A DNA stretch of 64,000 nucleotides from a phage: the sequence record PZ445487.1. One strand, written 5' to 3'. The notes under the pieces are model-generated. The model worked only from the letters and a program-made list of their open reading frames with translations, ran no database searches and was not told the origin of the DNA. This document shows, piece by piece, positions 130-28,583 of the stretch (the stretch's first letter is position 1; each line of letters starts with the position of its first letter). Position numbers and translations under genes: made by a program.

Positions 130-152
130 TTGAAAGGTAAGATTATATCATG
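130..152 (+). repeat. conserved early 5' leader motif (degenerate copy)
   Basis: TTGAAAGGTAAGATTATATCATG. Confidence 0.45.
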
Positions 153-389
153 AAGAACAAAATGGTAGAAACTTCAGTGGAGATTGATCGTAATTGGGGC
201 TTGCTCCGCGCTAAAGGGTTCCGTCGTGTGTATGCGACCAAAGAAGTATATGCCCAGCGCCGCGATGTTATCATCAGCAAGAAGGGAAAAGATTGGGTTG
301 CCGAAGAAGTCGATGTCGAAACAGGCGTCGTCGGAAAGGTGAAAGCCAAGGCCGCGATCCTCTTCGCTCTTCTGAAGCACATCAGTTAA
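150..389 (+). CDS. hypothetical protein
   Basis: ORF track; ATG preceded by conserved early leader (130-152) and early promoter at 70-98. Confidence 0.5.
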   Translation: MKNKMVETSVEIDRNWGLLRAKGFRRVYATKEVYAQRRDVIISKKGKDWVAEEVDVETGVVGKVKAKAAILFALLKHIS

Positions 390-404
390 TTCTATAACTT
401 AGGG

Positions 405-420
405 TGGGGTATGATTACCC
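405..420 (+). other. intergenic stem-loop without T tract (possible RNA processing/stability element)
   Basis: GGGGTA-TGAT-TACCCC immediately upstream of conserved leader. Confidence 0.4.
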
Positions 421-426
421 CGCCTA

Positions 427-451
427 TTTGAAATGAAGGAAATACATCATG
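427..451 (+). repeat. conserved early 5' leader / translation-initiation motif (copy)
   Basis: TTTGAAATGAAGGAAATACATCATG; matches copies at 130-152, 985-1010, 3174-3201, 16259-16283, 22143-22169, 28559-28583. Confidence 0.6.
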
Positions 452-955
452 ACCGATCAACAAATTCAAGATTTATTTTACCTCGTCCATGATAAGTCCC
501 ACATCATGCGCCCTGGCACTGTTTCCCCTGCCATCCGTGGTCTGGTGCAAGAATTACGCGAACCGCAGATGACCACACTTTATCGCGGGTTGCCTAAAGA
601 GGACGTTGCGCGTTTGGAGATGATGTTTGAACGAGGAGACATGTTTCAGACATGGGATTCTTGTCTTAGTTTCAGCGAACTGAAGCATGTGGCCAAACAA
701 TTTTCTAAATCGTATGGAACCAAAGCTGTTGCCCGCATTTGTTATAAACATCGAAACGGACTCCCAGAGGGGCTTAATGTCTTTGGTTCTCTAGAAAAAT
801 TTGTGAACAAAGGCGATGAATCAGAAATGGATATGCTGGACTTGGCGTCCATGGAGAAAGAATGGATATTCTGTCAGCCTCGCGTCTTCCCAGTTTCAAG
901 AAAAATGGCAACAGATGGGACGATGGTTTTTACCGTATCACTTGTTACCCTATAA
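449..955 (+). CDS. hypothetical protein
   Basis: ORF track; conserved leader 427-451 immediately upstream. Confidence 0.55.
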   Translation: MTDQQIQDLFYLVHDKSHIMRPGTVSPAIRGLVQELREPQMTTLYRGLPKEDVARLEMMFERGDMFQTWDSCLSFSELKHVAKQFSKSYGTKAVARICYKHRNGLPEGLNVFGSLEKFVNKGDESEMDMLDLASMEKEWIFCQPRVFPVSRKMATDGTMVFTVSLVTL

Positions 956-961
956 ACCCAC

Positions 962-983
962 GGCGGGGTATCTTTGCCCCGCC
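962..983 (+). other. intergenic stem-loop without T tract
   Basis: GGCGGGG-loop-CCCCGCC immediately upstream of conserved leader. Confidence 0.4.
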
Positions 984-984
984 C

Positions 985-1010
985 ATTTGAAATGAAGGAA
1001 CTATATCATG
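985..1010 (+). repeat. conserved early 5' leader motif (copy)
   Basis: TTTGAAATGAAGGAACTATATCATG, near-identical to 427-451. Confidence 0.6.
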
Positions 1011-1286
1011 ACAGATCAAAGAAGTATTGCTCGTTCGGAAATCAAAGATATTATACAGAGCAAAACCAACGAAACTCATGCTCAATCCAGAATGCTATCT
1101 CGATTTGTTGAAATTAAGTTTGACATTGAAGAGAATAACAATCGGAGAGCGCTGGAGGGAATGTTGGCGATTATCTTGGGCCATGTCACCAATTCAGCAT
1201 ACGACATGGATGATTTAACTCGTTTGTTGAACGCCCAGAATAACGTTGGGAATTCTGTTCGCGAATTGCTGTTTAAGTCCGAATGA
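1008..1286 (+). CDS. hypothetical protein
   Basis: ORF track; conserved leader 985-1010 upstream. Confidence 0.55.
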   Translation: MTDQRSIARSEIKDIIQSKTNETHAQSRMLSRFVEIKFDIEENNNRRALEGMLAIILGHVTNSAYDMDDLTRLLNAQNNVGNSVRELLFKSE

Positions 1287-1323
1287 ACTAACTAAGGGAT
1301 AATCCTATATCCCGAGGTGTGTC

Positions 1324-1773
1324 ATGTTCCTTACATCCTTTATTGACTGGATGAATATCATAAATGGCCTGAGGATTCCTGTTGGGAACCTCGGGCTTTC
1401 TCGTTCTTCTATGCCGCAAATCGATGCCGACAAACAAGAAGATTTTCACAAATATCTTGAAGACAACGGCGTGTCCATAGATGCTGCGCAAGTGCCCATC
1501 AAAATGCTTCGTCTTACCCAGAACGAAATCAATAAAATGAAGGTCTGGAAGATTATGAAGCAGATCAGAAATAAGAAGCCCATGGGTCGAGTTTGGGTGT
1601 CTTCTGACAATTACGTTGTTGACGGGTCTCACCGATTTGTCGCTGCGTTGAACATGGACGGCAAACAGCGCATGAAGGTCTACAAAGTTGATTTGCCAGC
1701 GATGGAATTTGTTAAACTCGCTAAACAGTTTCAGGGTGTGCGATACAGAACGGTCTCAGATTCGAGATACTAA
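1324..1773 (+). CDS. ParB/sulfiredoxin-like nuclease-domain protein (putative)
   Basis: ORF track; motif VVDGSHRFVAAL resembles ParB N-terminal GxxRxxAA box; RBS GAGGTG upstream. Confidence 0.45.
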   Translation: MFLTSFIDWMNIINGLRIPVGNLGLSRSSMPQIDADKQEDFHKYLEDNGVSIDAAQVPIKMLRLTQNEINKMKVWKIMKQIRNKKPMGRVWVSSDNYVVDGSHRFVAALNMDGKQRMKVYKVDLPAMEFVKLAKQFQGVRYRTVSDSRY

Positions 1774-1774
1774 T

Positions 1775-2050
1775 ATGGACGTCTATTCAGAACTTATCGA
1801 AATAGGAGCGAAACGTCATTTCGTAAACAAATATCTTTCGCTCATTTCTTCTTTTAGTCATTACCAAGGCGTCGGGGAGAAGCACCTATTGAAAGGTAAG
1901 ACGAGAGGGGAAGCCCTGAAACAAGTATTCGGTTCCAATGACGCAGAAATTTGGGCACAGGTTCGGCCAATTATTCTACGGTTGGATAACGGTTGGGACC
2001 CTTTAACTTGCGAAAAATGGGTTAATCGTTATGGGGTGGAATACCAGTAA
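1775..2050 (+). CDS. hypothetical protein
   Basis: Internal ATG of ORF 1688..2050 placed just after stop of previous gene; weak RBS. Confidence 0.4.
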   Translation: MDVYSELIEIGAKRHFVNKYLSLISSFSHYQGVGEKHLLKGKTRGEALKQVFGSNDAEIWAQVRPIILRLDNGWDPLTCEKWVNRYGVEYQ

Positions 2051-2144
2051 ACCACCCGTTTCTGAATACGATAGTTTATTGAAACCCTTTACTCAACATG
2101 GTGACAGCCCTATCATTTTATCCAATGAAATAAGGAGAATCACC

Positions 2145-2834
2145 ATGAAACGTTTAATCATCGGGGTTGTGCTGGCTGGTCTGGCACTTCCTGCCACCGC
2201 CAAGCTGAATTCCACGGGTGAAAAACTGTGGTCTGATCTTTCCTACTGTGCTGGGTTCTCCCAAGCCGTCGCTATAGACAAAACTGGTTCCATAGAGAAC
2301 TTTGCTGAACTCTGGACCACAGGTAATGTCACAGATGCCGTTGTAAATGCTGGTATTGAGTTTAATCGATATAAGCAAGGCGCGTTCAACCTGAAAGGAT
2401 ATATGAACGACAAAGAATTTAACCGAGGAGGCATGGAGGCGAGCGATCTTATTATGACTGGTCGTATGGGCACACAAGGACGAATGACCGTAAGACAGTG
2501 CCGTTCTCTTCCTTCTCCAGCATTACAAAAAGGTGTGCAGGTTGGCCGACGTCAGCTGGATCTCATCAATGATGGCAACCAATGTATCCGAGTATTTGAA
2601 TACAGTGCTGATCAAGAATCAGATCGACGTTTGAAAAAGGAATGGCGGACTCGCGCCCTTGGCCTGAGAGCATGGCTGGTGGAAAATGATCATTATTATG
2701 AAGACCGTGTTCAGAATGGTTTGAAAGATCTTTCCACTAATTTGTCTGTCAATCTTGATGATCCCAGGCTTGCCCGTGAACTCAAGCAAACAAGAATTGA
2801 CTGTGATAATATGATGAAGGAGAACGAAAGATGA
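2145..2834 (+). CDS. secreted/periplasmic hypothetical protein
   Basis: ATG with AAGGAGAA RBS; N-terminal signal peptide MKRLIIGVVLAGLALPATA. Confidence 0.55.
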   Translation: MKRLIIGVVLAGLALPATAKLNSTGEKLWSDLSYCAGFSQAVAIDKTGSIENFAELWTTGNVTDAVVNAGIEFNRYKQGAFNLKGYMNDKEFNRGGMEASDLIMTGRMGTQGRMTVRQCRSLPSPALQKGVQVGRRQLDLINDGNQCIRVFEYSADQESDRRLKKEWRTRALGLRAWLVENDHYYEDRVQNGLKDLSTNLSVNLDDPRLARELKQTRIDCDNMMKENER

Positions 2835-3151
2835 GAAACATAATATTCTTGTTATTCTTTTCTATGTTGGCATCATTCCAAGTTGTGGCAACTCCGGCTA
2901 GCAAATTGAATATGTGTGCGGCCTGGTTGTCTACTTATCAACAATTTCACCCTGATGATAAAGATACATCCATCCTTTTATCAGATTATGAAGGTGAGTT
3001 GAAACGCCTTGATCTCTACAGCGTGGATCAAATAGAGAATGCTTTGGATTTGCCAATGATGGAGTCCGCTGCCGACAATAGCAAACAGACGATCAAAGAT
3101 CTGACTATGTGTCGGGAAATAGCGACTAATTTCGTTGGAAATCAAAGATAA
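2831..3151 (+). CDS. secreted hypothetical protein
   Basis: ATGA overlap with upstream gene; hydrophobic signal-like N-terminus MRNIIFLLFFSMLASFQVVA. Confidence 0.5.
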   Translation: MRNIIFLLFFSMLASFQVVATPASKLNMCAAWLSTYQQFHPDDKDTSILLSDYEGELKRLDLYSVDQIENALDLPMMESAADNSKQTIKDLTMCREIATNFVGNQR

Positions 3152-3198
3152 TTTTCAGGTTAAAATTTAACTTCCATTGAACTGAAAGGAAATACTTC

Positions 3199-3993
3199 GT
3201 GATGATTATTACCAAAAAGATCGCCGAATCGATCATTGAAAAGAATAAGATGTTCGCGCCCAACAAAGCAAAGGTCATTCTGATTCACGAAGACGGACGC
3301 GTCATCTTCGCTGAAAAGTTCGAGCAGGGTTGTGCTTTCTGGTTCGCAGACACTATGCGCGAAAGCAAGCTGCAGGGCATCATCTATAAACTGACTCTGG
3401 TTGCCAAGCGCAATGATCAGGGTGATTGGGTTACGGTTTGTGATTTCAGCTCCAAGGTTGATACTCGACCAAAATCTCGCCAAGAGAGAATTCTGGAAGC
3501 TCAGGAAAAACTTGTTGCTGCTCGTACTTCACCAGTCGTTAAGCCCGCAGTCATCTCCCCTTCTATTGATCTGCCGCCTGTCAGCCAAAAGGCTGTTGAG
3601 CAATATGCAGAAAAACGAAAAGAAGAACCCGTGAAGTCTCCAGTTGAGAATAAAGAAGAATCTGAATTTATTTCAATCAGGCAATTATGCCCGCAAGAAA
3701 GGCGATTTTCTTCACCAAATGATTTATTCGTGTCTTTCCGGTCTAATGGGAAGATTATATTGTGCAAAACCCTACGGGAACAATTGCAGTGGCCTAACAT
3801 CAATATGATGGTGAGTCGGAACTTCAAACGATTCGCAATCGGTGAAGGTAAAGATTATCCTGTTAATAAGAGCGGAACATATGCAAATCGTCATATGTGC
3901 GACAAATTGTCTTTCCCAAACGATTCTGGCACTATTCGTGTTCGTTTAGAATGGGATGAAAGTTTGAACATGTATGTCGGTGATATAAAATAA
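3199..3993 (+). CDS. hypothetical protein
   Basis: ORF track; GTG/ATG start aligned with degenerate conserved leader 3174-3201. Confidence 0.5.
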   Translation: MMIITKKIAESIIEKNKMFAPNKAKVILIHEDGRVIFAEKFEQGCAFWFADTMRESKLQGIIYKLTLVAKRNDQGDWVTVCDFSSKVDTRPKSRQERILEAQEKLVAARTSPVVKPAVISPSIDLPPVSQKAVEQYAEKRKEEPVKSPVENKEESEFISIRQLCPQERRFSSPNDLFVSFRSNGKIILCKTLREQLQWPNINMMVSRNFKRFAIGEGKDYPVNKSGTYANRHMCDKLSFPNDSGTIRVRLEWDESLNMYVGDIK

Positions 3994-4005
3994 TTCAATA
4001 ACATT

Positions 4006-4036
4006 AGGGCGGTTATTATTAAACCGCCTTTTATTT
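4006..4036 (+). terminator. rho-independent terminator
   Basis: Hairpin GGGCGGTT..AACCGCC followed by TTTTATTT. Confidence 0.5.
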
Positions 4037-4050
4037 GAGAGATCTATATT

Positions 4051-4719
4051 ATGAACAACAAGAGCCGTATTATCATCGGGGCTGACCAGGGTAATTTATA
4101 TTTTGAAAGATCTGGTGTTGTCGCCCACGCTATCCTTCCCACTGGAATTTCCGTTTATTGTGTGGAACATCCTGACCCTGCAGTTAAACGTCTTTGCTAT
4201 GTCTCCCGTGAAAATGGACTAATTGTATTGCCAGAAGGCGCGATTATGCGCGCTCGTTTTTGGCCGATCGATTTTAATTCCATGAGCAATAGGGAGATCG
4301 ACGCCCGTTTCTTCGTACATAATATGAACCGGACTCTGAAAAATGAAACTCAGAGAGTTGTTCATTTCGACAATGAAACTCATGGAGTGACGTTAGAATT
4401 CAGAACTCGTGGTGAAGCTCTTCAGGTGAAGAAATCAAGCTGGAAAACTGAAGGGACGTTCACATATGATTATGCGTTAATCGACAAATTGTGTAATCAG
4501 TTTCGCATTAGCCTGACTGCCAACGACGATTTAGGTCAGTATGTTGTATGGACAGCCCGTTCACCACATATGAACGGTATCATGATGGAGAGTGAAACTC
4601 GTAATCGCGCTGTGCTCCAACTGCTGCTGTTAGACGCGTATTCTCGCAACCCGTTGGAATATCTGTCTCGGGAACAGATTGATAACGCGCTTTCTCATTG
4701 TAACCGTCTGGAGGTGTAA
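4051..4719 (+). CDS. hypothetical protein
   Basis: ORF track; terminator 4006-4036 and leader-like sequence upstream. Confidence 0.55.
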   Translation: MNNKSRIIIGADQGNLYFERSGVVAHAILPTGISVYCVEHPDPAVKRLCYVSRENGLIVLPEGAIMRARFWPIDFNSMSNREIDARFFVHNMNRTLKNETQRVVHFDNETHGVTLEFRTRGEALQVKKSSWKTEGTFTYDYALIDKLCNQFRISLTANDDLGQYVVWTARSPHMNGIMMESETRNRAVLQLLLLDAYSRNPLEYLSREQIDNALSHCNRLEV

Positions 4720-4720
4720 T

Positions 4721-5008
4721 ATGTCCGGCGTATGGTGTGATGTATTGTTGGTAAGATTTTCAAACGGGATGGATAATCAGATCATTTCATTCTTTTATCC
4801 TGTTCCCTTTTCTTCTATGGGTCTGACTGTCAAGCGCGTTCTTGACATAGAAGAAAAACTCAACACGATGCCGTATATGGCGCGACCACACGTGCTGGGT
4901 TGTGAACTGTTAAACGAAATGATGATTGACGAGAATCTTGTTGAAACAATTATCACGCGTGAACAGATGAAAACCATACTGTCTCAGGGAGAACCCCATG
5001 TCGAATAA
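4721..5008 (+). CDS. hypothetical protein
   Basis: Internal ATG of ORF 4679..5008 with GGAGGTG RBS, placed after stop of previous gene. Confidence 0.45.
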   Translation: MSGVWCDVLLVRFSNGMDNQIISFFYPVPFSSMGLTVKRVLDIEEKLNTMPYMARPHVLGCELLNEMMIDENLVETIITREQMKTILSQGEPHVE

Positions 5009-5318
5009 ACCGTTTGAACTTAAATTTCGCGTTTGGCATATTCCCCAGGTTCCTGGGATCGCTTTTCATGTTGAGGTTCCAACATTTGAAGAAGCGCAGC
5101 GCCTGAAGAATACTCTGGCTGATTATGATTTGTTCCAGTTCAACAACAATATCAAGCCGGATTATTGTAATGCTTCGGGCATTCAGATTTATCAACATGA
5201 TCTGACTGAAGAAGATCTAAATGATATGGGACTGGATGATCGTTGGGTTGATATCGAAGATATTGACGAACTCAACGATTATTTTGATCATCTGCGTAGC
5301 ACAGGGTGGGAAATATGA
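4998..5318 (+). CDS. hypothetical acidic protein
   Basis: ORF track; short overlap with neighbours. Confidence 0.5.
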   Translation: MSNKPFELKFRVWHIPQVPGIAFHVEVPTFEEAQRLKNTLADYDLFQFNNNIKPDYCNASGIQIYQHDLTEEDLNDMGLDDRWVDIEDIDELNDYFDHLRSTGWEI

Positions 5319-5524
5319 TCGGGTTAATCCGTTATCTGTTCATATTCGTAATAACAACATTCATTTTATTTTTCTTTTTCAAATACTTGAAAGAGACTAA
5401 AATCTACCGGAGTAAACGTTGGCGCAAACGGGTGAGGGTAACTTTCCTACTGCTGATTTCTTCGGTTACAATAACTGCACTCACATTGGGTGCTTATATT
5501 TACATTTTTGAAGGAGTACATTGA
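5306..5524 (+). CDS. small membrane protein
   Basis: ORF track; two hydrophobic segments; overlaps downstream SPFH gene start. Confidence 0.45.
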   Translation: MGNMIGLIRYLFIFVITTFILFFFFKYLKETKIYRSKRWRKRVRVTFLLLISSVTITALTLGAYIYIFEGVH

Positions 5525-6315
5525 TGTTCAAGAAACTGGTATTTGGCGCAATTATGGTCCTAGCGGCAAGCCTTCTTTCAGGCTGCGGCGGTGTTATCGA
5601 TGAAGGAAACGTCGGTGTTCGAACCCAATGGGGTGAAGTGGACATGAACCCTGTAACCGCAGGTATCTACACCAGTTTCGTTTCAAGTGTAGATGTCTAT
5701 ACGACTAAAGAAGCCGTCGTGAGTCTGACGAAAATGACGCCAAAGGCCAAAGACAACCTGACCTTGGAAGATCTGGATGTGGACGTTTATTACACACCGA
5801 ACGTCGCGAAGGTTCCTTGGTTCCATACCAAATTTGCAGGTCAGAGCGCTGAACTCGGTGACGGCACGATAGCGGTGGGATTCAACCTGGTTAAAACCGC
5901 CGCAGCATCCTCAACGATGGACGCCGTTTCTTCTTTGGATTCTATGACAATTCACACCCAACGGGCTGAGTTAGAAAAGATGATCAAGGAACGCACCCAG
6001 CAGCAATTAGAAACAGCTGCACCTGGCATGTTCACAATCACACGCGTGTTGGTCAAAAAGGCGCTGACAGATCCTTCGATTGAGCAATCTATCCGTGATA
6101 ATGTCATGGCCGACAAACGTTTGGATACAGCAAGAAAGAACGTTGAAATTCGCGACCAAGAAGCCAAGGCGAATCAGAAACTGACGACATCTCTGACACC
6201 TGAATATTTACAACACGAATATAACATGGTGTTGCAATCTTGCGCCAACAGCGGGAAATGTACTCTGATTGTTGATGGTTCAGGCTCAAGTAAAATGCTA
6301 AACGTCGGCAAATAA
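5524..6315 (+). CDS. SPFH/band-7 domain lipoprotein (putative)
   Basis: Signal peptide with lipobox LLSGC; GNVGVRTQWGEV...P..AGIYTSF resembles HflK/C-stomatin SPFH N-terminal motif; GAAGGAG RBS. Confidence 0.6.
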   Translation: MFKKLVFGAIMVLAASLLSGCGGVIDEGNVGVRTQWGEVDMNPVTAGIYTSFVSSVDVYTTKEAVVSLTKMTPKAKDNLTLEDLDVDVYYTPNVAKVPWFHTKFAGQSAELGDGTIAVGFNLVKTAAASSTMDAVSSLDSMTIHTQRAELEKMIKERTQQQLETAAPGMFTITRVLVKKALTDPSIEQSIRDNVMADKRLDTARKNVEIRDQEAKANQKLTTSLTPEYLQHEYNMVLQSCANSGKCTLIVDGSGSSKMLNVGK

Positions 6316-6398
6316 ACGCTTTATTCAATAATATTTGTTAGGTAAGCTGTAGTCCTCTTGTAGTGAAACATTGTAAACAACTAACTGGAGTAATCCGA

Positions 6399-11775: not shown

Positions 11776-14109
11776 ATGAACAATGTAGACCTATTATCAA
11801 AATTTGGTTCGCTGTTGAAAGAAGCGGACACTCCTGTTTCTGTTGAAGTACCATTTGAAATTCGTGGGGAAATTACCCACAAACTGACTTTCCATCGCGG
11901 TCGCGCTAAAAACTTCCGTTCTATCGGTAATGAATTCATGGAAATTGATTACCAACGCAATTCGGCAACCTTGGTTACATCCGATGACAATGGCGCTGGT
12001 AAATCCACCATGCTTGTCTGGCTGCTGTTCTTCGTTCTGTATAATGACACATATAGCAAGAAAGAAAAGAAAGCCGGATTAGTCAATTCCCAAAACAAAA
12101 AGGAATGCGTGGGTGAAGTTGAGTTCTCCACTCGAGGAAGTGAATGGAAAGTCCGTCGTGGTATCAAACCTGATTTCGTAGAAGTCTATCAGATGGTAGA
12201 CGGTGAGTGGAAGCAGGTCGTGAATGATGCGGCCAAAGCCGACATGAACAAATATATTGTGAACCTGATTGGCGTAGACCAGAAGATGTTTGAGAACTCC
12301 CTGGTTCTAGGCAAAGAGAAGTTCATCCCATTCACGGAAATGTACACTGCCGACCGTCGCGCTATGGTAGAGACAATCTGGGATTTGGGGTTCTTCAGTC
12401 TGATGAATGAAGATGTAAAAGCATCTATCAAGACAGTAACGAATGAACTCACGACGGTCACCAATGATTACGCCTTTCATGATGTAAATTTAAAAGGCCA
12501 GCAAGCGCAGTTGGAACAGATCAATAATTCCAATGCGATGATCCAGCAACAATCTGCGGATATCCTTGTCCAAGAGAAGGAACGTCTGAATAGCCTGAAT
12601 TCAGATATCAACGCAGTGCAGGAACAACTGACAGAGTCCCGTGCTCAAGACTCTAAATTGGAATCAGAATTATCAGAAGTCCGTAATCGCCTGAACGCTG
12701 AAATGAAGGTGGATATCGATTCCATCAATGACGAGTATTTTGCCAAAATTCAAGCGGTTCAGGATGAGGCTGATACCAAGGCTGAAGACTATGAGCGTAT
12801 CGAGGTGTCTGATGGCGAACGTTCATTACAAGAAATTCGGGAGAGAATGGCGGTAGTCGCGGAACGTAAAAATGATCTGGTTAGCCAACGGAATGCTAAC
12901 CTGGATGAACTGAACAAAGCATTAGCGCGGCGTCAGCAGGGTGAGAACTTCCGTATCAAATTCGTAACAGAAATGGAAGGACATGAATCTGCCATCAAAC
13001 GTTTCCACGATATGGGCACTTGCCCTACGTGTACGCAATTAGTGTCGGACGATACCAAATCACGCATTGAAAGTCAATATTATCCACAAATCAGTGAACT
13101 GACTGACAAGATTCTTCAGGTTGATACAGCCCTAGAAGAAGTGAATTCCCTGATTGAGAATTACAATGTCAGAGATTCAGAATTATCTTCTCAGATTTCG
13201 GTTATTGACAAAGAACTGGATGCTTTGCGCAATGAAATTCGAGAAGCGGAATCGGCGATCGCTACATTAAAACGCGACATCCAAGGTTTCTACGAAGTTG
13301 CGGCGGTTGAGAAAACATCTTTACAGCGGGAACAACAGTCCAAAATTAACGACGTCCTCAAGGCCGTAGACACCCGTTACGAAGATATCACGACGTCAAT
13401 CCGTCAAGCCCGTGAGCAGCTCTCTAAGAGTATCAACGACACGGCTGATAAACTCACCAGCCTGAAATCACTCCGTGCCCCTCTGGAGGCATCCATTGCT
13501 GATTTAGAGCGTAAATTGGCGGTTAAGCCGACACCAACTGACGCCCTGGAAGAAGAGATCGCTCGCATCACGGCATTAATGGAAGATCTGAATGCGCGGC
13601 GCGTAGAGTTGGATGAGAAATTGCAAGACCTGAACCATCTTCTGTTCTTCCTAAAAGATGATCAGACCAAGGCTCGAATTATCAGTCTGTATTTGCCTTT
13701 CCTCAATAGTAAAATAAACGAGTATCTTGAAGCACTCAATATGTTCTTGGATATTGCTGTTGATGATACATTTGAAATCACCATGAGCGCTGCTGGTCGT
13801 AAAGGGCAAAGCATATTCTCCCTGTCTACAGGACAACGCAGCCGACTCAATCTGGCTGTGACATTAGCCCTACGGGACGTCGCTAACCTGAAGGCGTCTG
13901 TACAATGTAACCTCTTCGTGTTGGATGAGATACTCGAAAACATGAGTGAGCGAGGGGTTCAAGAATCCATCGAGATGCTGAAACATAAATTTGGTGGGAA
14001 CAATCTGTTTGTCATCAGTCAGCGTGAGCAGGAGTTCCAAGAATATTTCCAACATAACATTCGTTATGGTCTGCGTAATGGCATGACCGAAGTGATTAAG
14101 AAGGATTGA
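11776..14109 (+). CDS. 46: recombination endonuclease subunit gp46 (Rad50/SbcC-like ATPase)
   Basis: Walker A NGAGKST, long coiled-coil middle, C-terminal LSTGQRS signature-like and DE box. Confidence 0.85.
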   Translation: MNNVDLLSKFGSLLKEADTPVSVEVPFEIRGEITHKLTFHRGRAKNFRSIGNEFMEIDYQRNSATLVTSDDNGAGKSTMLVWLLFFVLYNDTYSKKEKKAGLVNSQNKKECVGEVEFSTRGSEWKVRRGIKPDFVEVYQMVDGEWKQVVNDAAKADMNKYIVNLIGVDQKMFENSLVLGKEKFIPFTEMYTADRRAMVETIWDLGFFSLMNEDVKASIKTVTNELTTVTNDYAFHDVNLKGQQAQLEQINNSNAMIQQQSADILVQEKERLNSLNSDINAVQEQLTESRAQDSKLESELSEVRNRLNAEMKVDIDSINDEYFAKIQAVQDEADTKAEDYERIEVSDGERSLQEIRERMAVVAERKNDLVSQRNANLDELNKALARRQQGENFRIKFVTEMEGHESAIKRFHDMGTCPTCTQLVSDDTKSRIESQYYPQISELTDKILQVDTALEEVNSLIENYNVRDSELSSQISVIDKELDALRNEIREAESAIATLKRDIQGFYEVAAVEKTSLQREQQSKINDVLKAVDTRYEDITTSIRQAREQLSKSINDTADKLTSLKSLRAPLEASIADLERKLAVKPTPTDALEEEIARITALMEDLNARRVELDEKLQDLNHLLFFLKDDQTKARIISLYLPFLNSKINEYLEALNMFLDIAVDDTFEITMSAAGRKGQSIFSLSTGQRSRLNLAVTLALRDVANLKASVQCNLFVLDEILENMSERGVQESIEMLKHKFGGNNLFVISQREQEFQEYFQHNIRYGLRNGMTEVIKKD

Positions 14110-14827: not shown

Positions 14828-14864
14828 GAAGGGCACTAAATATCAAGTGCCCTTTATCTTTTAA
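14828..14864 (+). terminator. rho-independent terminator
   Basis: Hairpin GAAGGGCACT..AGTGCCCTT followed by TATCTTTT. Confidence 0.55.
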
Positions 14865-16176: not shown

Positions 16177-16204
16177 AATATTCAATAAAAGGGGCAAAAG
16201 CCCC

Positions 16205-16233
16205 TTTACTTCTTCAATAACCCACGTATAATT
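16205..16233 (+). promoter_or_regulatory. early promoter (TTTACT-N16/17-TATAAT)
   Basis: Follows hairpin 16190-16205; TATAAT at 16227-16232. Confidence 0.5.
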
Positions 16234-16258
16234 CTAAACATAAGCAGTACGACACCAA

Positions 16259-16283
16259 CTTGAAAAGCAGGAACTACATTATG
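16259..16283 (+). repeat. conserved early 5' leader motif (copy)
   Basis: CTTGAAAAGCAGGAACTACATTATG. Confidence 0.55.
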
Positions 16284-16556
16284 AAAATCATCCTCGACGC
16301 ATATATCCGTTACGGCAGCAAATGGTTGATGGCCAAAGTTTACGACGGTGAAGAATTAGTCCACGCCCAAACCGCCCCTTCTGAACAATTGCGTGAAATT
16401 ATGAAACGCGATTTTCCTACTGCTGAAATGATTGAACCTGCCAACCAAACCGAAGTTGACAAAGAATGGGAACGCGAATGGAGTCCGGCGGCGTTGGCAC
16501 AATTTGATAAGAATTACAACAATCGCCAAAACGCGTCTCGCCCGTTTCGTCGTTAA
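16281..16556 (+). CDS. hypothetical protein
   Basis: ATG at end of conserved leader 16259-16283; early promoter 16205-16233. Confidence 0.5.
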   Translation: MKIILDAYIRYGSKWLMAKVYDGEELVHAQTAPSEQLREIMKRDFPTAEMIEPANQTEVDKEWEREWSPAALAQFDKNYNNRQNASRPFRR

Positions 16557-16621
16557 GAAGCACCCCTTTCTTTTCGCTAATTAAGGGAAACCGCACCGAT
16601 TTTATAATCAGGAGAATTACA

Positions 16622-22020: not shown

Positions 22021-22060
22021 AAATACTTCAAAAATAATTTAAAAATTTATTGAAAAAGAC

Positions 22061-22089
22061 TTTACTCTTAAATAATCATGCACTATTAT
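22061..22089 (+). promoter_or_regulatory. early promoter (TTTACT-N17-TATTAT) with A/T-rich upstream region
   Basis: Hexamers at 22061-22066 and 22084-22089; A/T tract 22021-22060. Confidence 0.5.
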
Positions 22090-22142
22090 AGTTCACATAG
22101 GGCGGTACACAACACCCCGCCGAATGAAAAGTGAAACGACCC

Positions 22143-22169
22143 AACTACATTATGAGGAATTACATCATG
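22143..22169 (+). repeat. conserved early 5' leader motif (tandem variant)
   Basis: AACTACATTATG followed by AGGAATTACATCATG. Confidence 0.5.
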
Positions 22170-22655: not shown

Positions 22656-22659
22656 CCGC

Positions 22660-22681
22660 AAGGGGGAAACCTCCCCCTTTC
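22660..22681 (+). terminator. rho-independent terminator
   Basis: Hairpin AGGGGGA-AACC-TCCCCCT followed by TTT. Confidence 0.55.
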
Positions 22682-22705
22682 AAAGTTTTGGTAGGAGAAT
22701 GAGAC

Positions 22706-22894
22706 ATGAGTAGAGCAATTATCCAAGCCTCTCCTGGCGCTCTATGGGTTGCCGACCGAATTCCCAACGCGCACTTTCCTCAGTTCCAAGAGGAACTGGA
22801 ACAAGCGATGTTGAAAATATTTGAAAAATATGGGTATGATTCCGAAGTTAGGACTTCCTTCAAAGAAATCATGCCTATCGTCGTAGTCAGATAA
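22706..22894 (+). CDS. hypothetical protein
   Basis: ORF track; RBS GGAGAA. Confidence 0.4.
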   Translation: MSRAIIQASPGALWVADRIPNAHFPQFQEELEQAMLKIFEKYGYDSEVRTSFKEIMPIVVVR

Positions 22895-22963
22895 TCGACA
22901 CTAAATCCTCAAGTTCGACTTTCACTTTAAATACCTTCGCATACATTGCGGAGGTATTTTCTT

Positions 22964-23758
22964 ATGGCCATTCTAAAACTTGGCAACCGAGGTTCTGAAG
23001 TCAAAGCACTTCAACAAAGCCTCAACAAAATCGGTTTCTCTCTTACAGCCGATGGCATATTTGGTAAGGCAACAGAGAATGCCGTCAAATCCGTTCAGGC
23101 AGGTGCTGGATTGGTTATTGATGGTATTGCTGGGCCAAAGACCTTCTATGCTATCCGCAACGCTGGAGACGCTCACCAGGAACATCTGACCGAAGCGGAC
23201 TTGGTTGACGCAGCACGTGAACTTGGTGTTGAGCTGGCCAGTATGAAAGCGGTGAACCAGGTAGAATCCCGTGGTACGGGTTTTACCAAAACTGGCAAGA
23301 TCAAAACTCTGTTTGAGCGCCACATCATGTACAAAAAGGTGACGGCCAAATTCGGGCAAGCAAGAGCCAATGCTCTGTACCAACTCTACCCAACATTGGT
23401 TAACCCCAATTCTGGCGGGTATATCGGCGGAGACGCGGAGTTGGAACGCCTTCAGGGTGCAATCGCCCTTGACGAGGACTGCGCTTACGAGAGTGCTTCC
23501 TACGGCCTATTCCAGATCATGGGGTTCAACTGCCAAATCTGTGGCTATTCAAATGCCAAAGAGATGTTCACTGATTTCCTGACTGGTGAACGCGCTCATC
23601 TTCTGGCATTTGTCAAGTTCATCAAGGCTGATGCCAATATGTGGAAAGCCCTGAAGAACAAGAATTGGGCCGAGTTTGCTCGTCGGTACAATGGTCCGGC
23701 ATATGCGAAAAACCAGTATGATACTAAACTGGCGGCAGCATACAAGAGTTTCTGTTAA
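22964..23758 (+). CDS. endolysin: peptidoglycan-binding domain + N-acetylmuramidase-like domain
   Basis: N-terminal PG_binding-like repeat (GSEVKALQQSLNKIGF...DGIFGKAT); C-terminal muramidase-like region; RBS GCGGAGG. Confidence 0.65.
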   Translation: MAILKLGNRGSEVKALQQSLNKIGFSLTADGIFGKATENAVKSVQAGAGLVIDGIAGPKTFYAIRNAGDAHQEHLTEADLVDAARELGVELASMKAVNQVESRGTGFTKTGKIKTLFERHIMYKKVTAKFGQARANALYQLYPTLVNPNSGGYIGGDAELERLQGAIALDEDCAYESASYGLFQIMGFNCQICGYSNAKEMFTDFLTGERAHLLAFVKFIKADANMWKALKNKNWAEFARRYNGPAYAKNQYDTKLAAAYKSFC

Positions 23759-23764
23759 TTCTCA

Positions 23765-23788
23765 AGGCCGGAAACGGCCTTTTTCTTT
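23765..23788 (+). terminator. rho-independent terminator after endolysin gene
   Basis: Hairpin AGGCCG-GAAA-CGGCCT followed by TTTTCTTT. Confidence 0.65.
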
Positions 23789-23865
23789 ATCTGATATACA
23801 GGTATGCTGGGCGTGTCGCTTAATTAAAGGTGTCGACAACCCCTGTAGATATAGGAAGGTTCAAC

Positions 23866-24705
23866 ATGCAATCTGCGTCTAAAGTTGTATCCATGAAGCC
23901 AGCGAAGACAAAATCTGCTCGTAAGAAAGACACCATCCAGAAGGAAGAAGACTGGATGAAGTTTTCCAAAGGCGATTTCAAAATTGCTCCGTTCAATGGC
24001 CTCTCAGAAAATCAGAACCTCGCATATCAATCCGCACTCAATGAACATCTCACTATCGCTATCGGTCCGGCAGGTACAGGCAAATCCTATTGTGGTGCAT
24101 CTGCTGCAGCAAAACATCTGATTGACAAAACCATCAACAAGATTATCATCACGCGTTCTCCCCTTCCAACTGGCACCACAGCAGGGTTCCGGCCTGGTGA
24201 TACATATGAAAAGTTGATGCCTTATTTGATGCCGCTCATACAGACATTCAAAAAGGTTCTCAAAACAGATACGGGTTCCGACGGTTTCTTCAACTATCTG
24301 TGGGAGAAACGCATCATAGAAATTCAAGACCTTGAAACTGTAAAAGGGATGACTTTCGATGATTGTTTCCTGATTATCGAAGAGGCGCAGGAATGCGATA
24401 TGGAGCAGCTGAAGAACTTACTGACCCGTGCTTCAGATTCTTCGTACATCTTCGTGAATGGAGATATCAAACAGTCTAACAAGCGATTGCGTGATAGTGC
24501 GTTACAGACGTATGTGGATTCCTTTAAAGACTTCAACAATAAGCTGGAAACAGGTTCCTTGCAAATTGACGGTGTAGAAATCGGAGATGAATATCCAGAG
24601 TGGGTTCAACCATTCAGCATCATCGAATTCGATAAGTCTGATCGTAATGGTCGCGGCAACTTCACCCGCCTGATGTTAGAAATTAACGACCTGTACAACA
24701 TTTAA
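23866..24705 (+). CDS. phoH: PhoH-like ATPase
   Basis: Walker A GPAGTGKS; overall PhoH-like architecture; RBS AGGAAGG before internal ATG. Confidence 0.7.
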   Translation: MQSASKVVSMKPAKTKSARKKDTIQKEEDWMKFSKGDFKIAPFNGLSENQNLAYQSALNEHLTIAIGPAGTGKSYCGASAAAKHLIDKTINKIIITRSPLPTGTTAGFRPGDTYEKLMPYLMPLIQTFKKVLKTDTGSDGFFNYLWEKRIIEIQDLETVKGMTFDDCFLIIEEAQECDMEQLKNLLTRASDSSYIFVNGDIKQSNKRLRDSALQTYVDSFKDFNNKLETGSLQIDGVEIGDEYPEWVQPFSIIEFDKSDRNGRGNFTRLMLEINDLYNI

Positions 24706-24789
24706 ATACCACACGAACTTCCCCGTCGCCTTCAATCCATGGAGGCGACGTATAATAACAGCCTGCATAAACACAAACCGAGGATCGCT

Positions 24790-27066
24790 ATGATTAACAT
24801 CATAAAGCGGGACGGATCTTCTGTCCCCTTTGACATTGAAAAACTCCATACCGTTATTGAACGAGCATGTGACGGCCTTGAAGGAGTATCGGTGTCTGAG
24901 GTGGAAGCCGCATCGAAGATTCAATTCACCGATAACATGAAAACCGAACGCATTCAGGATATCATTATCCAAGCTGCGGCCACCTTAATTTCTGTTGATA
25001 AACCCAACTATCAATATGTTGCTGCCCGCCTGAAGTCGTATGACCTGCGCAAGGTTGTCTATGGTCAGTACAAGCCACCTCATTTGCTGGATATTTTTGC
25101 AAAGAACACCAAGCTGGGTGTTTATGACCGCGAATTCCTCGAACTTTACTCTAAAGAAGAATTCGAAGAACTTAACACAGTCATCAACCACAAACGCGAC
25201 AAGAATTTCACTTGGGCAGCAATGGGCCAGCTGACTCAAAAATATCTTTTGCGTGATCGTTCTTCTGACAGCAAAGTGTATTATGAAACCCCTCAAGTCA
25301 TGTACATGGCAATCGCTATGGCATTATTCTCAGCGTGGGATAAAGAAAGCAGACTGACAATGGTGAAGAAGTTCTATGAATACGCCAGTACAGGCAAATT
25401 CAGTCTTCCAACACCTATTATGTCCGGCGTCCGCACCCCGACCCGACAGTTCAGCTCTTGTGTATTGATCAAAACTGGTGATACATTGGACTCAATTAAT
25501 GCCACTGCGAAAAGCATCGTGGATTATGTTTCCAAACGTGCTGGCATCGGATTCGATGTTGGGGCAATTCGTGGCATCGGTAGCCCTATCCGTAAAGGGG
25601 AAATGGTCCATACAGGTCTGGTTCCATTCATCAAGTATTTGACTGGTGCCCTGAAGTCTTGCTCTCAAGGCGGTATCCGTGGTGGATCGGCAACATGCTA
25701 TGTTCCCATCTGGCATTATCAATTTGATGATGTCGTTGTTCTCAAAAACAACCGTGGATTGGAAGAGAACCGTGAACGCCGTATCGACTATGGGATTCAG
25801 ATTAACCGCGTCATGTTCGAGCGCCTGGTGAACAAACAGCCTCTATACCTGTTTGATCCAAAAGACAACCGCGAAATGTATGAAGCATTTTTCGCAGACG
25901 TCAATAAATTCCGCGAAATGTACGACAATATGATCAAGGCCGCCGACGCCGGATTATGTCGTTCCAAAAAGCTGCAAGCTGAAGAAGTGTTCCAAATGCT
26001 ACTAGACCAGCGTTCTGACACTGGACGGATCTACATCGCATTCGTTGATCACATGAACGAGTATAGTCCGTTCAATTTGGACACGATTTATAGCTCTAAT
26101 CTGTGTTTAGAAATCGCGCTTCCGACTCGTGAGTTCCAACAGTATGATGATGAAGATGGTCGCATTGCCCTGTGTACACTCGCATCATTTAACCTGACGG
26201 CATTTGAAGATCCAACAGAAATGGAAGATGTTGCTTTCGTTCTGGTTTCAGCTTTGGATATGTTGTTGGAATATCAGGACTACCCAGCTCGCCAAGCCCG
26301 TTTGGCCGTAGAAGAATATCGTCCTCTGGGTATCGGTATCGTCAACGTCGCACATTTCCTGGCCAAGAATTTCACGGGTTATGGATCGCCTATCGGATTA
26401 GAACTTCTAGACAAGTGGATGGCGCATCTTCATTTCTACTTGGTCAAAGCGTCCAACCGTCTGGCCATGCGTTTCGGATCTTGTAAGAAGTCAACTATCC
26501 ATGATTCCGGATTTGTAACAGCCGACCTTCAGCCTCTCCCGCTGGACATCCTACCCAATGGCAAAAAGCCTGTTGGGCAAGCCTATGGTCTTGACTGGGA
26601 AGGTCTTAAGCAGAACCTATCCGAGTATGGGATCCGTAACGCCACGTTGTTAGCCGTAGCACCAACTGAAAGCTCCTCTCAGGTGCTGAACGCAACGAAC
26701 GGTATAGAGCCACCAAAAGGTCTCATCAGCATCAAAGGCAGCAAGGACGGCGTCTATAAACAGATCGTTCCGGATGTAGAAACCCTTGGTCCTCTATATG
26801 ACCTGAAATGGAATCTGGATTGTATTGAATACCTGAAGACGGCTGCGGTCATACAACGTTGGGTAGATCAATCTATCAGCACCAACACATGGTATGACCC
26901 AGAGAAATATCCAGAAGGCAAGATCCCGCGCTCTCTTATGATGCAGGATATTCTGTCTTTCTACATGTGGGGTGGTAAAACTCTGTATTACAACACCAAC
27001 AAAGACTCCAAGGAAGATGAAGAGTTGAAACAAGTTGAAGAAATTTGTGATACCTGTGTTGTTTGA
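24790..27066 (+). CDS. nrdA: ribonucleotide reductase class Ia large subunit NrdA
   Basis: ATP-cone N-terminus (IIKRDGS..PFD..K), conserved RNR active-site regions, C-terminal Cys pair; RBS GAGGA. Confidence 0.9.
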   Translation: MINIIKRDGSSVPFDIEKLHTVIERACDGLEGVSVSEVEAASKIQFTDNMKTERIQDIIIQAAATLISVDKPNYQYVAARLKSYDLRKVVYGQYKPPHLLDIFAKNTKLGVYDREFLELYSKEEFEELNTVINHKRDKNFTWAAMGQLTQKYLLRDRSSDSKVYYETPQVMYMAIAMALFSAWDKESRLTMVKKFYEYASTGKFSLPTPIMSGVRTPTRQFSSCVLIKTGDTLDSINATAKSIVDYVSKRAGIGFDVGAIRGIGSPIRKGEMVHTGLVPFIKYLTGALKSCSQGGIRGGSATCYVPIWHYQFDDVVVLKNNRGLEENRERRIDYGIQINRVMFERLVNKQPLYLFDPKDNREMYEAFFADVNKFREMYDNMIKAADAGLCRSKKLQAEEVFQMLLDQRSDTGRIYIAFVDHMNEYSPFNLDTIYSSNLCLEIALPTREFQQYDDEDGRIALCTLASFNLTAFEDPTEMEDVAFVLVSALDMLLEYQDYPARQARLAVEEYRPLGIGIVNVAHFLAKNFTGYGSPIGLELLDKWMAHLHFYLVKASNRLAMRFGSCKKSTIHDSGFVTADLQPLPLDILPNGKKPVGQAYGLDWEGLKQNLSEYGIRNATLLAVAPTESSSQVLNATNGIEPPKGLISIKGSKDGVYKQIVPDVETLGPLYDLKWNLDCIEYLKTAAVIQRWVDQSISTNTWYDPEKYPEGKIPRSLMMQDILSFYMWGGKTLYYNTNKDSKEDEELKQVEEICDTCVV

Positions 27067-27136
27067 TTAGGTCTATACAACACAAACGTTTAATATCAGG
27101 GGTGATTCGTCACCCCTTATTCATCAGGAAAGAAAC

Positions 27137-28240
27137 ATGAACGAACAAAAGCAATTCTCAGTATTCGATCCATCTTCAAATAATACAGGACTGCCATTCT
27201 TTGGCGACCCTGTAAGTATCCAGCGTTATGACAAAGTGGCTTGGCCTTTTGTTCAAAAATGGTATGAAAAAGGCCTCAGCCAATTCTGGCGTCCGGAAGA
27301 AGTGGATGTCACCAAAGACAAAGCAGACTTTGCCACTCTATCCGCTGCGGAACAACACATCTACTTCAGCAACCTGAAACGACAGACCATGCTGGATTCT
27401 ATCCAGGGTGCTGCTCCGTTCGAAGCGTTTGGCCCATGGGCATCAACACCAGAAGCGCAATTTGCTATTCTGGAGTGGACGCGCCAAGAAGCCATCCACT
27501 CACTATCTTACACGCATATCCTTCGTAACACAGTGAATGATCCTGGTATCGTTTTTGACCATGTTCTGGACGTTCAGGAGATCGTCGATTGCGCCGGACA
27601 GATCAGCGTATACTACGACGACATGGTGCGTTACAGCGGGATGCGTATGGCTGGACGCGCGTTCACCCGTGAAGACATCATGAACGCCAAGCGTGCATTC
27701 TGGCGTGCTCTGTTTGCCGCCAACTCCCTCGAAGGCGTCCGTTTCTATGTTTCATTTGCGTGTTCTTGGGCATTCATGCAATTCCTCAACAAAATGGAAG
27801 GCAACGCTAAAATCATCCGTCAGATTGCTCGTGATGAGCAAGATCACCTCATCCTGACCCAGACTTTCCTGAACCGTCTGCCACTGATGGACCCTGATTT
27901 TGCCATTATTAGAGAAGAACTGCGCGGCGAAATGACCCAGATGTATGTCGACGTTGTCAACCAAGAAAAAGAATGGGCGAATTATCTGTTCAAAGACGGC
28001 TCAATGCTGGGACTGAATGCAAATATCCTTCATCAAATGGTGGACTGGTTGGCAACACACCGTATGGGAGCTATTGGCCACCCATATCCAGGACAAGCCC
28101 GTAAAGACAATCCGGTGCCATGGATAAATGAGTGGCTAGATAATAAAACAATGCAATATGCATTACAGGAAGCGGAAGCTCCTGATTATCTGACTGGTGT
28201 CCTTACTGGATCAGTCTCCGACGGTCTGAAATTTGCCTAA
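27137..28240 (+). CDS. nrdB: ribonucleotide reductase small subunit NrdB
   Basis: Di-iron ligand motifs (EAIHS, E..H) typical of class Ia beta subunit. Confidence 0.9.
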   Translation: MNEQKQFSVFDPSSNNTGLPFFGDPVSIQRYDKVAWPFVQKWYEKGLSQFWRPEEVDVTKDKADFATLSAAEQHIYFSNLKRQTMLDSIQGAAPFEAFGPWASTPEAQFAILEWTRQEAIHSLSYTHILRNTVNDPGIVFDHVLDVQEIVDCAGQISVYYDDMVRYSGMRMAGRAFTREDIMNAKRAFWRALFAANSLEGVRFYVSFACSWAFMQFLNKMEGNAKIIRQIARDEQDHLILTQTFLNRLPLMDPDFAIIREELRGEMTQMYVDVVNQEKEWANYLFKDGSMLGLNANILHQMVDWLATHRMGAIGHPYPGQARKDNPVPWINEWLDNKTMQYALQEAEAPDYLTGVLTGSVSDGLKFA

Positions 28241-28249
28241 AGGTGAGAA

Positions 28250-28474
28250 ATGATTACGATTTATTCCAAACAAGGTTGTGCGCAATGTTTACAAGCTGAA
28301 AACATCTGTCGCATTCGCGGTATTGAACACCAAATTCTGAAGCTAGACAAAGACTACAAGCTGGAAGAATTACAGAAAATCACTGGTAAGCAACGCATGT
28401 CTATGCCCGTGATTGTTCTGGCTGACCAAACCGTGACCGACGTTACTGGACTCGCCGCAAGTTTGAAACGCTGA
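28250..28474 (+). CDS. glutaredoxin/NrdH-like redoxin
   Basis: CAQC redox motif in short thioredoxin-fold protein directly after nrdB. Confidence 0.6.
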   Translation: MITIYSKQGCAQCLQAENICRIRGIEHQILKLDKDYKLEELQKITGKQRMSMPVIVLADQTVTDVTGLAASLKR

Positions 28475-28482
28475 TCTTTCAA

Positions 28483-28510
28483 AGCCCCTCATTGAGGGGC
28501 TTTACTTTTG
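28483..28510 (+). terminator. rho-independent terminator after nrdAB-grx operon
   Basis: Hairpin AGCCCCTC-ATTG-AGGGGCT followed by TTTACTTTT. Confidence 0.6.
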
Positions 28511-28529
28511 AAACCTTTCCGCCTATACT
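28501..28529 (+). promoter_or_regulatory. early promoter (TTTACT-N17-TATACT)
   Basis: Immediately after terminator hairpin 28483-28501. Confidence 0.45.
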
Positions 28530-28558
28530 TCCCAGTAATTCATTGGCAAACGCCACAA

Positions 28559-28583
28559 ATTGAATAGCAGGAACTATATCATG
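28559..28583 (+). repeat. conserved early 5' leader motif (copy)
   Basis: ATTGAATAGCAGGAACTATATCATG. Confidence 0.55.

Follow-up and report, generated by a model that had tools for sequence, protein, structure and literature searches.

Which function is served by a leader sequence that recurs, well beyond the extent of a Shine-Dalgarno element, directly before the start codons of dissimilar phage genes? The question is raised by a 64,000-nucleotide (nt) stretch of phage DNA (record PZ445487.1; hereafter the window), in which an initial annotation made from the letters alone had pointed out seven such leaders and proposed that they form a translational operator or RNase target shared by a regulon of early genes. 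All seven sites were present where it had placed them. The window is the reverse complement of positions 14302-78301 of Escherichia phage CBA120 (Kuttervirus, Ackermannviridae), with 100% identity to record NC_016570.1 across the first 8 kb and two base differences overall, and we judged the motif against the whole CBA120 genome (157 kb), using the RefSeq table of 203 genes, and against about 40 Ackermannviridae loci gathered by IMG/VR scans. This analysis indicates that the motif probably forms the translation-initiation end of a regulatory cassette of several parts, one resembling the promoter-early stem-loops (PeSLs) of T4-type phages. The leader belongs to a unit of regular anatomy, occurs far above chance, is conserved across genera more strongly than the flanking coding DNA, and stands before unrelated genes that replace one another behind its ATG.

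A 24-base leader motif ends at start codons of CBA120

The copies share the consensus TTGAA-N4-AGGAA(C/A)TAYATYATG, 24 bases that end exactly at the ATG. Allowing two mismatches, AGGAAMTAYATYATG matched 11 times where 0.96 matches were expected, and the full 24-mer TTGAANNNNAGGAANTAYATYATG, with up to three mismatches, matched 5 times (0.15 expected), four of the five matches being perfect. Genome-wide, an ungapped matrix built from nine copies returned 13 sites scoring 12 bits or higher, compared with 0.67 in Markov nulls. Eleven of these were annotated starts, one was the start of an unannotated 50-amino-acid open reading frame (ORF) and one was an in-frame upstream ATG of orf104, while none of the 13, across the whole genome, fell inside coding sequence, in antisense orientation or at a structural (late) gene. 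The genome-wide search with strand control that the initial annotation had suggested therefore yielded an excess on the coding strand only, and what the annotation had named as evidence against the motif, a chance frequency or an equal occurrence at late genes and inside coding regions, was not what we found.

A profile of 202 CBA120 gene starts carried information at -12 to -8, weakly at -3/-2, and at the start codon, with almost none at -23 to -19 or -7 to -4. Because the general profile is nearly empty at these positions, the motif extends beyond an ordinary Shine-Dalgarno context, its TTGAA block (-23 to -19) and CTAYATC spacer (-7 to -1) being additional to what other genes carry, as the initial annotation had suspected. 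The annotation was also correct that conservation is at the nucleotide level. The peptide NYIM that it had read from some copies does appear in ORF calls; it is an artefact, since the annotated starts are the terminal ATGs and since the TTG of TTGAA, or a GTG or ATG upstream, sits 21 nt 5' in frame, so that mechanical ORF calling continues through the motif.

Start regions with the motif were slightly less structured than those of other genes (probability of being unpaired 0.60 vs 0.51, p=0.013), and positions -8 to -1 of the motif had an A+T fraction of 0.73. The tetramer GGAG was found in 0 of 12 motif copies, compared with 66 of 190 other genes. Across the 64-kb window, Rfam 15 gave no match to a curated cis-regulatory RNA at gathering score. 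An antisense RNA partner was considered and rejected, as a single complementary 12-mer exists elsewhere in the genome (record 134614) and about one is expected by chance, by our estimate.

The motif closes a cassette of hairpin, promoter-like site and leader

The motif is one block of a longer unit whose other blocks are equally conserved, which disfavours the free-standing element that the initial annotation had in mind and for which we found no direct support. Cassettes of class 1 consist of a GC hairpin whose T-tail coincides with a -35 of the form TTTACT, a -10, a CA-rich leader and the motif. The hairpins (-12 to -18 kcal/mol) lie directly against the -35, which is usually followed by TCTTCAATAA, six bases and then TATAAT, TATACT or TATTAT, and the leader occupies about 25 nt between the -10 and the motif (e.g., CATAAGCAGTACGACACCAAC). 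AT-rich stretches lie 5' of the cassettes, such as TTTAAAATACTTCAAAAATAATTTAAAAATTTATTGAAAAAGA before the orf104 promoter-like site and TTAAAATATTCAATAAAA before the orf112 hairpin.

Perfect TTTACT-N16/17-(TATAAT, up to one mismatch) sites numbered 8 in the 157-kb genome, with about 1.4 expected from base composition. All eight lay on the coding strand, 28-77 nt 5' of a start codon, the motif or a degenerate copy followed seven of them, and the distance from -10 to ATG was nearly fixed at 48-51 nt in five. A generic promoter scan independently listed the six TTTACT sites that fall within the window. The genes in question were called early in the initial annotation; they do stand just 3' of sigma-70/T4-early-type promoter-like sites, from which early expression would follow.

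Copies at orf140, orf138 and orf130, which seemed promoterless at first sight, belong to class 2, in which a TTC(A/T)ATAA box is followed after 12 nt by a -10-like hexamer inside a hairpin loop, so that the hairpin spans the -10. Sites of the form TTCAATAA-N12-TATAAT-like occurred nine times genome-wide, always 5' of start codons and in eight cases 27-37 nt from the start (about 0.2 calculated to be expected at that spacing), and several have a GC stem-loop across the -10. The TTCAATAA box itself was five-fold over-represented in the window (23 vs 4.7). A class-2 transcript would start within the 3' arm of the hairpin, and its 5' untranslated region would then consist essentially of the motif. 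The spacing from the TTCAATAA box to the -10 recalls T4 MotA-dependent middle promoters; we know of no MotA homologue reported for CBA120-type phages.

The cassette is conserved across genera

We found the motif at orthologous positions in phages whose primase identity to CBA120 ranges from 100% to 78%. Relatives at 60% primase identity keep TTTACT..TATTAT and then TTGAAACGAAGGAACT(A/T)TACAATG, the remaining leader being different. Identity within the cassette was 83-93% where the flanking coding sequence was 68-82% identical, and the invariant columns comprised the -35, TTCAATA, the -10, CATAAGCAGTACGA, TTGAA and GGA.CTA.A..ATG. Changes in the hairpin stems were compensatory (T-A to C-G, C-G to G-C, and GGGGC/GCCCC to GGGAC/GTCCC), the orf096 hairpin among them; the orf096 and orf112 stems have opposite polarity, and compensation was read per site. 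In the class-2 hairpin of orf140 the loop TATGAT is invariant in relatives while the stems vary with compensation. The orf104 cassette is nearly invariant in loci down to 73-76% primase nucleotide identity (L017-L025), and the variant at orf131 is likewise kept in relatives.

Across all of IMG/VR, the strict 24-mer pattern gave 51 matches, about 40 of them in Ackermannviridae genomes. The other 11 form five contig groups at ORF starts, one being a T4-like cyanophage-type contig and another without a named relative, which is roughly the chance level estimated for gene starts; a motif widespread in other phages was therefore rejected.

Unrelated genes replace one another behind the ATG

In the approximately 40 related loci the genes that follow the cassette are unrelated, with homology lost at the ATG. 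The orf112 locus illustrates this most fully: one cassette is followed by any of four proteins (91, 111, 122 and 123 amino acids) that have no detectable similarity to one another, in a mosaic distribution independent of primase identity. Motif variants and downstream genes occur there in differing combinations, indicating independent recombination, and each alternative gene carries its own hairpin before homology returns at CGCTAATTAAGG, upstream of orf111. In blastn comparisons over 38 loci, homology at orf112 ended at 16284-16285 and resumed at 16557-16574 in 10 loci. The orf112 terminator hairpin at window 16557-16574 lacks its 5' arm in CBA120; the close relative L007 has the full AAAAGGGTGTTAGCACCCCTTT stem-loop.

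Junctions at other motif genes fell at similar places. End-points clustered at 140-165 for orf141 (10 loci) and at 432-460 for orf140 (15 loci), and junctions lay at 4049-4058 for orf130 (6 loci) and at 28583-28589 for orf096 (7 loci). Counting orf112, end-points clustered to within a few bases of the ATG in 5 of 8 motif genes, compared with 7 of 31 others (Fisher p=0.043). The region from the acyl carrier protein gene to orf137 holds highly variable gene sets in relatives. Among them are genes for an ADP-ribosylase-like, a DenV-like and a small signal-peptide-like (secreted-looking) protein as well as orf138, any of which may be the gene directly after the orf140 hairpin and motif, and nearly all genes of these sets stand behind a motif variant.

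Two direct repeats of 58 nt, at 403-460 and 962-1019, flank orf140. They are about 86% identical by eye, and their motif copies are near-identical; two relatives (L088 and L100) have a single chimeric repeat, in which a repeat-1 hairpin is joined to the 3' portion of repeat 2, with orf140 precisely absent.

The orf140 gene (window 449-955) is an ADP-ribosylase-like accessory gene of PHROG 832. An IMG/VR scan at close-relative sensitivity found relatives of it in 3 loci only, compared with 22 for the primase, and in other genomes a DenV-like gene occupies its slot.

Resemblance to the PeSLs of T4-type phages

PeSLs are defined by an AT-rich stretch, a stem-loop and a sigma-70-like promoter followed at the 3' end by a Shine-Dalgarno sequence and ATG, and they lie beside variable ORFs; the crossovers mapped at them fall in the stretch that separates the ATG from the -10 or the Shine-Dalgarno sequence (PMC4122927; PMC2839356). 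They are known from the T4-type phages RB49/phi1, T4/PST and KVP40/nt-1 (Arbiol 2010, PMC2839356; Comeau 2014, PMC4122927). Each of these features (promoter, stem-loop, 3' Shine-Dalgarno and start, AT-rich region, variable ORFs) was found in CBA120 at the sequence level. The order of parts is identical, down to a GGGG..CCCC-type stem-loop, and the promoter-like TTTACT-N16/17-TATAAT/TATACT/TATTAT/TATCAT compares with the T4/PST consensus TTTACW-N17-TAYWAT (PMC4122927; PMC2839356). Both placements of the stem-loop occur, 5' of the -35 as in T4/PST and across the -10 as in RB49. CBA120 cassettes also adjoin small variable ORFs, with replacements and deletions bounded by cassettes, and include degenerate and duplicated copies (orf061, orf104). 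They differ from PeSLs in belonging to another family, the Ackermannviridae, in a nearly fixed distance from promoter to ATG and in the TTCAATAA box that recurs in and around the promoters. Moreover, the CBA120 leader and start form a 24-nt block conserved across genera, whereas the leaders that follow TTTAC promoters in T4 have little in common apart from the Shine-Dalgarno sequence.

The Viunalikevirus genus paper reportedly mentions conserved regulatory sequences. In the literature searched, we found no link between PeSLs and the Ackermannviridae, a prior description of the promoter boxes being possible (Viunalikevirus paper, Arch Virol 2012), and no Ackermannviridae transcriptome.

On this model, the GC hairpin should terminate or attenuate upstream transcription and so insulate the cassette, the sigma-70/T4-early-type promoter would fire early, and the open leader, with a Shine-Dalgarno sequence of moderate strength, would load ribosomes for any ORF placed after the ATG, making the cassette a self-contained expression socket. 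The 25-90 bp of shared sequence would serve as homology patches for the phage recombination system, and recombination at these patches would delete, insert or swap accessory early genes. Selection on translation initiation, repeated exchange between copies, or both would keep the TTGAA and CTAYATC blocks.

A portable start region of this kind has a familiar counterpart in the leader of T7 gene 10, AAGAAGGAGATATACATATG, with its upstream enhancer. That leader likewise has a purine-rich run, AAGGA and, ahead of the ATG, some 8 nt of spacer in which A, T and C alternate, and it works with many genes. The CBA120 Shine-Dalgarno sequence is shorter (AAGGA or CAGGA) with its register one base off, and the upstream block is TTGAA where T7 has TTAACTTTA; the resemblance may be convergent or coincidental.

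Several results weigh against the PeSL-like cassette or leave part of the motif outside it. Promoter and terminator assignments are consensus matches, and generic promoter and terminator scans yielded no more sites than shuffled sequence; we discarded loose sigma-70 scans as promoter evidence for this reason, only the exact TTTACT class standing out. Motif copies are paralogous and thus not statistically independent. Junctions are indeed enriched at the ATG, but modestly: these phages are commonly mosaic at gene boundaries, and start-codon junctions are frequent at other genes too. Shine-Dalgarno pairing was weaker at motif copies than elsewhere (median -5.7 vs -6.2 kcal/mol, p=0.006), so that an especially strong ribosome site fails as an explanation. 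TTGAA is invariant, yet the four bases that follow it vary freely, and before genes that do not belong to the cassette family it was no commoner than expected (6 observed vs 8 expected), which also removes it as a general translational enhancer of CBA120. This pattern points to a specific reader of the TTGAA block that the cassette explanation does not name; the block may be read specifically by something or be maintained through exchange between copies.

Operator, DNA signal, RNase site or chance

Part of the regulon proposed in the initial annotation survives as a possible if unlikely reading: the motif may be a dedicated translational operator through which a phage RNA-binding protein co-represses the cassette-borne early genes later in infection, and such an operator could coexist with the cassette. 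The candidate is orf160, outside the window (record 87851-88315; L005 9451-9915, minus strand), which has a match to Pfam PF01818 (E=4e-35) and shares 45% identity with T4 RegA along the full length; the RNA-binding residues T18, R21 and W81 of the T4 protein are retained, whereas K14, R91 and F106 are not. RegA binds A+U-rich, unstructured sites at the AUG or immediately 5' of it, and RB69 RegA protects the stretch from Shine-Dalgarno to AUG (PMC3014915). The motif (-23 to +3) covers this stretch, is 73% A+T at -8 to -1 and is weakly structured; like RegA operators it would be common to many early messages (Uzan & Miller 2010, PMC3014915), and the invariance of TTGAA, next to four bases that vary freely, suggests that something besides the ribosome reads this sequence specifically. 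The start region of T4 gene 45, TTGAATTGAAGGAAATTACATG, resembles it as well. However, orf162, orf163, orf161, orf160 and orf002, the respective CBA120 orthologues of gp44, gp45, gp62, regA and rIIB, which are classical RegA targets, have no motif, known RegA operators lack a clear sequence consensus (PMC3014915) where the motif is sharply conserved and contains C residues, and in relatives the spacing from TTGAA to the Shine-Dalgarno sequence takes values between 0 and 5 nt, an uneasy fit for a rigid operator made of two parts.

It is scarcely credible that an RNase recognises or processes early messages at the motif and so times their decay, whether at a site of the T4 RegB/S1 type or one for host RNase E. 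T4 does cut early mRNAs in their Shine-Dalgarno regions at the 11-nt sequence GGAGRAYARAA, inactivating them (PMC3014915), with cleavage at GG*AGRAYARAA (PMC3014915; PMC1702504), and the CBA120 motif is likewise a long conserved sequence around the Shine-Dalgarno GGA of early-gene leaders. The RegB type is nevertheless contradicted by the absence of GGAG from all 12 copies; the bases 3' of the motif GGA do not fit RAYARAA, the CBA120 RefSeq annotation names no RegB-like product, and GGAG avoidance would, if anything, protect these leaders. A signal acting in the DNA is very unlikely too, be it a promoter with TTGAAA as its -35 or a sequence recognised by an enzyme that mobilises the gene cassettes (a site-specific recombinase or a homing endonuclease). 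A generic scan flagged TTGAAA-N17-GAAAAT at 16260-16288, the 5' junctions of gene replacements fall within a few bases of the ATG, CBA120 encodes HNH and GIY-YIG endonucleases, and the PeSL authors left site-specific recombination open (PMC2839356). Such a promoter cannot be conserved, because a -10 placed 17 nt after TTGAAA would lie in the first codons, which are wholly different between genomes sharing the motif, and TTGAAA was rejected as a -35 on this ground. Against a cleavage or recombination target, every motif copy is in coding orientation and finishes at a start codon, the sequence 3' of the ATG has neither inverted repeats nor conserved flanks that look like cleavage sites, and the 3' junctions of replacements are ordinary hairpins of differing sequence. 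Chance resemblance among A/T-rich ribosome-binding sites, which the five non-Ackermannviridae contig groups might illustrate, can practically be dismissed: the counts exceed the shuffle and Markov controls (5 vs 0.15 and 13 vs 0.67), the extra information is absent from the 202-gene profile, and orthologous sites in different genera keep the motif.

The best reading, in our view, is a mobile regulatory cassette of the PeSL-like kind whose leader is unusually conserved. Only eight probable sigma-70-type promoters were given in the CBA120 genome paper, which found early promoters otherwise not identifiable by informatics (PMC3184105), and the phiSboM-AG3 genome paper likewise gave only eight tentative sigma-70 promoters. 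The cassette model supplies an explicit early-promoter consensus, a second promoter class, terminators and leaders, and accounts for both the sites and the manner of exchange of accessory early genes (ADP-ribosylase-like, DenV-like and many ORFans) in Kuttervirus, Agtrevirus-like and Limestonevirus-like phages. It would extend the PeSL concept beyond the Straboviridae and offer a ready insulated expression socket for engineering phages used in biocontrol of E. coli O157, Salmonella and Dickeya. If the leader is merely a ribosome site and recombination homology patch, the result is a useful annotation rather than new biology; if the operator reading is true, any gene captured behind the cassette joins a regulon shut off by orf160 or another factor, and promoter, terminator, ribosome site and repressor site move as one mobile unit.

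Features of the window and additional observations

Table 1 Motif copies and cassette parts, in window positions; "new" marks copies absent from the initial annotation
Feature	Position	Strand	Gene and details
Terminator-like GC hairpin GATCCCCAACAAACGTTGGGGATT with T run	32-55	+	After orf142, 5' of orf141 promoter-like site
Class-1 promoter-like TTTACT-N17-TATTAT	70-98	+	orf141; one of the 8 perfect TTTACT sites
Motif variant TTGAAAGGTAAGATTATATCATG, weak Shine-Dalgarno	130-152	+	Ends at orf141 ATG; 21 bits
Class-2 sites, TTCAATAA-N12-TATAAT-like	390-415, 3994-4019, 47026-47053, 50325-50350, 52246-52271
Class-2 element	390-424	+	orf140; TTCTATAA box 390-397, N12, TATGAT 410-415 in loop of hairpin 403-424
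Direct repeat 1	403-460	+	5' flank of orf140; hairpin, motif, first 9 coding bases
Motif copy	427-451	+	Ends at ATG of orf140 (ADP-ribosylase-like); 35 bits
Direct repeat 2	962-1019	+	Hairpin 962-983, motif 986-1010, first orf138 codons
Motif copy	985-1010 (motif 986-1010)	+	orf138; 36.5 bits
Class-1 promoter-like TTTACT-N17-TATCAT	2088-2116	+	orf135; with diverged motif, element 2088-2147
Diverged motif-like start region AATGAAATAAGGAGAATCACCATG	2124-2147	+	orf135; new
Motif variant CATTGAACTGAAAGGAAATACTTCGTG-ATG (GTG, then ATG)	3175-3204 (initially 3174-3201)	+	orf131 start
Class-2 element, TTCAATAA-N12-TATTAT	3994-4053	+	orf130; hairpin 4007-4028 across -10
Partial motif TTTATTTGAGAGATCTATATTATG	4030-4053	+	orf130; 13.9 bits; new
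Complete class-1 cassette	16187-16283	+	orf112; hairpin 16187-16207
Promoter-like TTTACT-N16-TATAAT	16205-16232	+	orf112; then leader CATAAGCAGTACGACACCAAC 16239-16259, motif 16260-16283
Motif copy	16259-16283 (motif 16260-16283)	+	orf112
Class-1 cassette	22061-22169	+	orf104; TTTACT-N17-TATTAT 22061-22089, leader hairpin 22100-22121
Tandem start	22122-22154	+	orf104; partial motif ending in in-frame ATG, then AGGAATTACATCATG 22155-22169
Motif copy without TTGAA	22143-22169	+	orf104; tandem partial copy upstream
Class-1 cassette	28481-28605	+	orf096; hairpin 28481-28503, TTTACT-N17-TATACT 28501-28529, motif 28560-28583
Motif copy	28559-28583 (motif 28560-28583)	+	orf096
Second, out-of-frame partial copy TCTGAAATATATCATG	28590-28605	+	22 nt inside orf096; new
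Degenerate cassette	47744-47855	+	orf061; hairpin 47744-47767, duplicated TTTACTTCAATAAAAC
Promoter-like TTTACT-N17-TATCAT	47781-47809	+	orf061; real Shine-Dalgarno and ATG 47843-47855
Motif without Shine-Dalgarno TTGAAAAGTTTCACTACATCATG	47820-47842	+	orf061; real start 11 nt further; new

A generic scan made a terminator-like call at 4006-4030, over the orf130 element. The upstream ATG of orf104 (22152) is in frame, five codons 5' of the annotated start (MRNYIM...), and the tandem arrangement at 22122-22169 hardly varies among relatives that represent three groups of primase identity. The two differences between the window and NC_016570.1 are at 13472 and 22070; at the latter, A replaces the C present at the matching position in all relatives examined, turning the conserved TTCAATAA of the orf104 promoter spacer into TTAAATAA. 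The partial copy inside orf096 is retained in close relatives and may be a recombination scar.

The RegA homologue orf160 follows the clamp-loader genes, as in T4, and is a hypothetical protein in GenBank; the 2011 CBA120 paper found only RNase H at the RNA level and did not note a RegA homologue (PMC3184105). In T4 itself (L120, 32603 and 16785 regions), the starts of gene 45 (TTGAATTGAAGGAAATTACATG) and gene 56 (TTGAAAGGAAAACTAATG) have the TTGAA-purine-GGAAA layout of the CBA120 motif, which from this likeness may be an old early-start feature of the T4 superfamily.

The sequence CTAAATA(C/T), found at window positions 14836, 15423, 19029, 19625 and 34045 (+) and also 5' of many structural genes in other parts of the genome, is similar to the T4 late promoter TATAAATA. 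It may represent the core of the CBA120 late promoter, described as unidentified in the 2011 paper (PMC3184105).

Finally, the unannotated 50-amino-acid ORF is hydrophobic (MILILWFVFTFLAMADIG...) and lies on the minus strand between orf234 and orf232 (record 143400-143248). Its start is a good motif copy (26 bits) behind a hairpin plus TTACT, a layout resembling a cassette with the spacer and -10 deleted between two TTGAA-like repeats.

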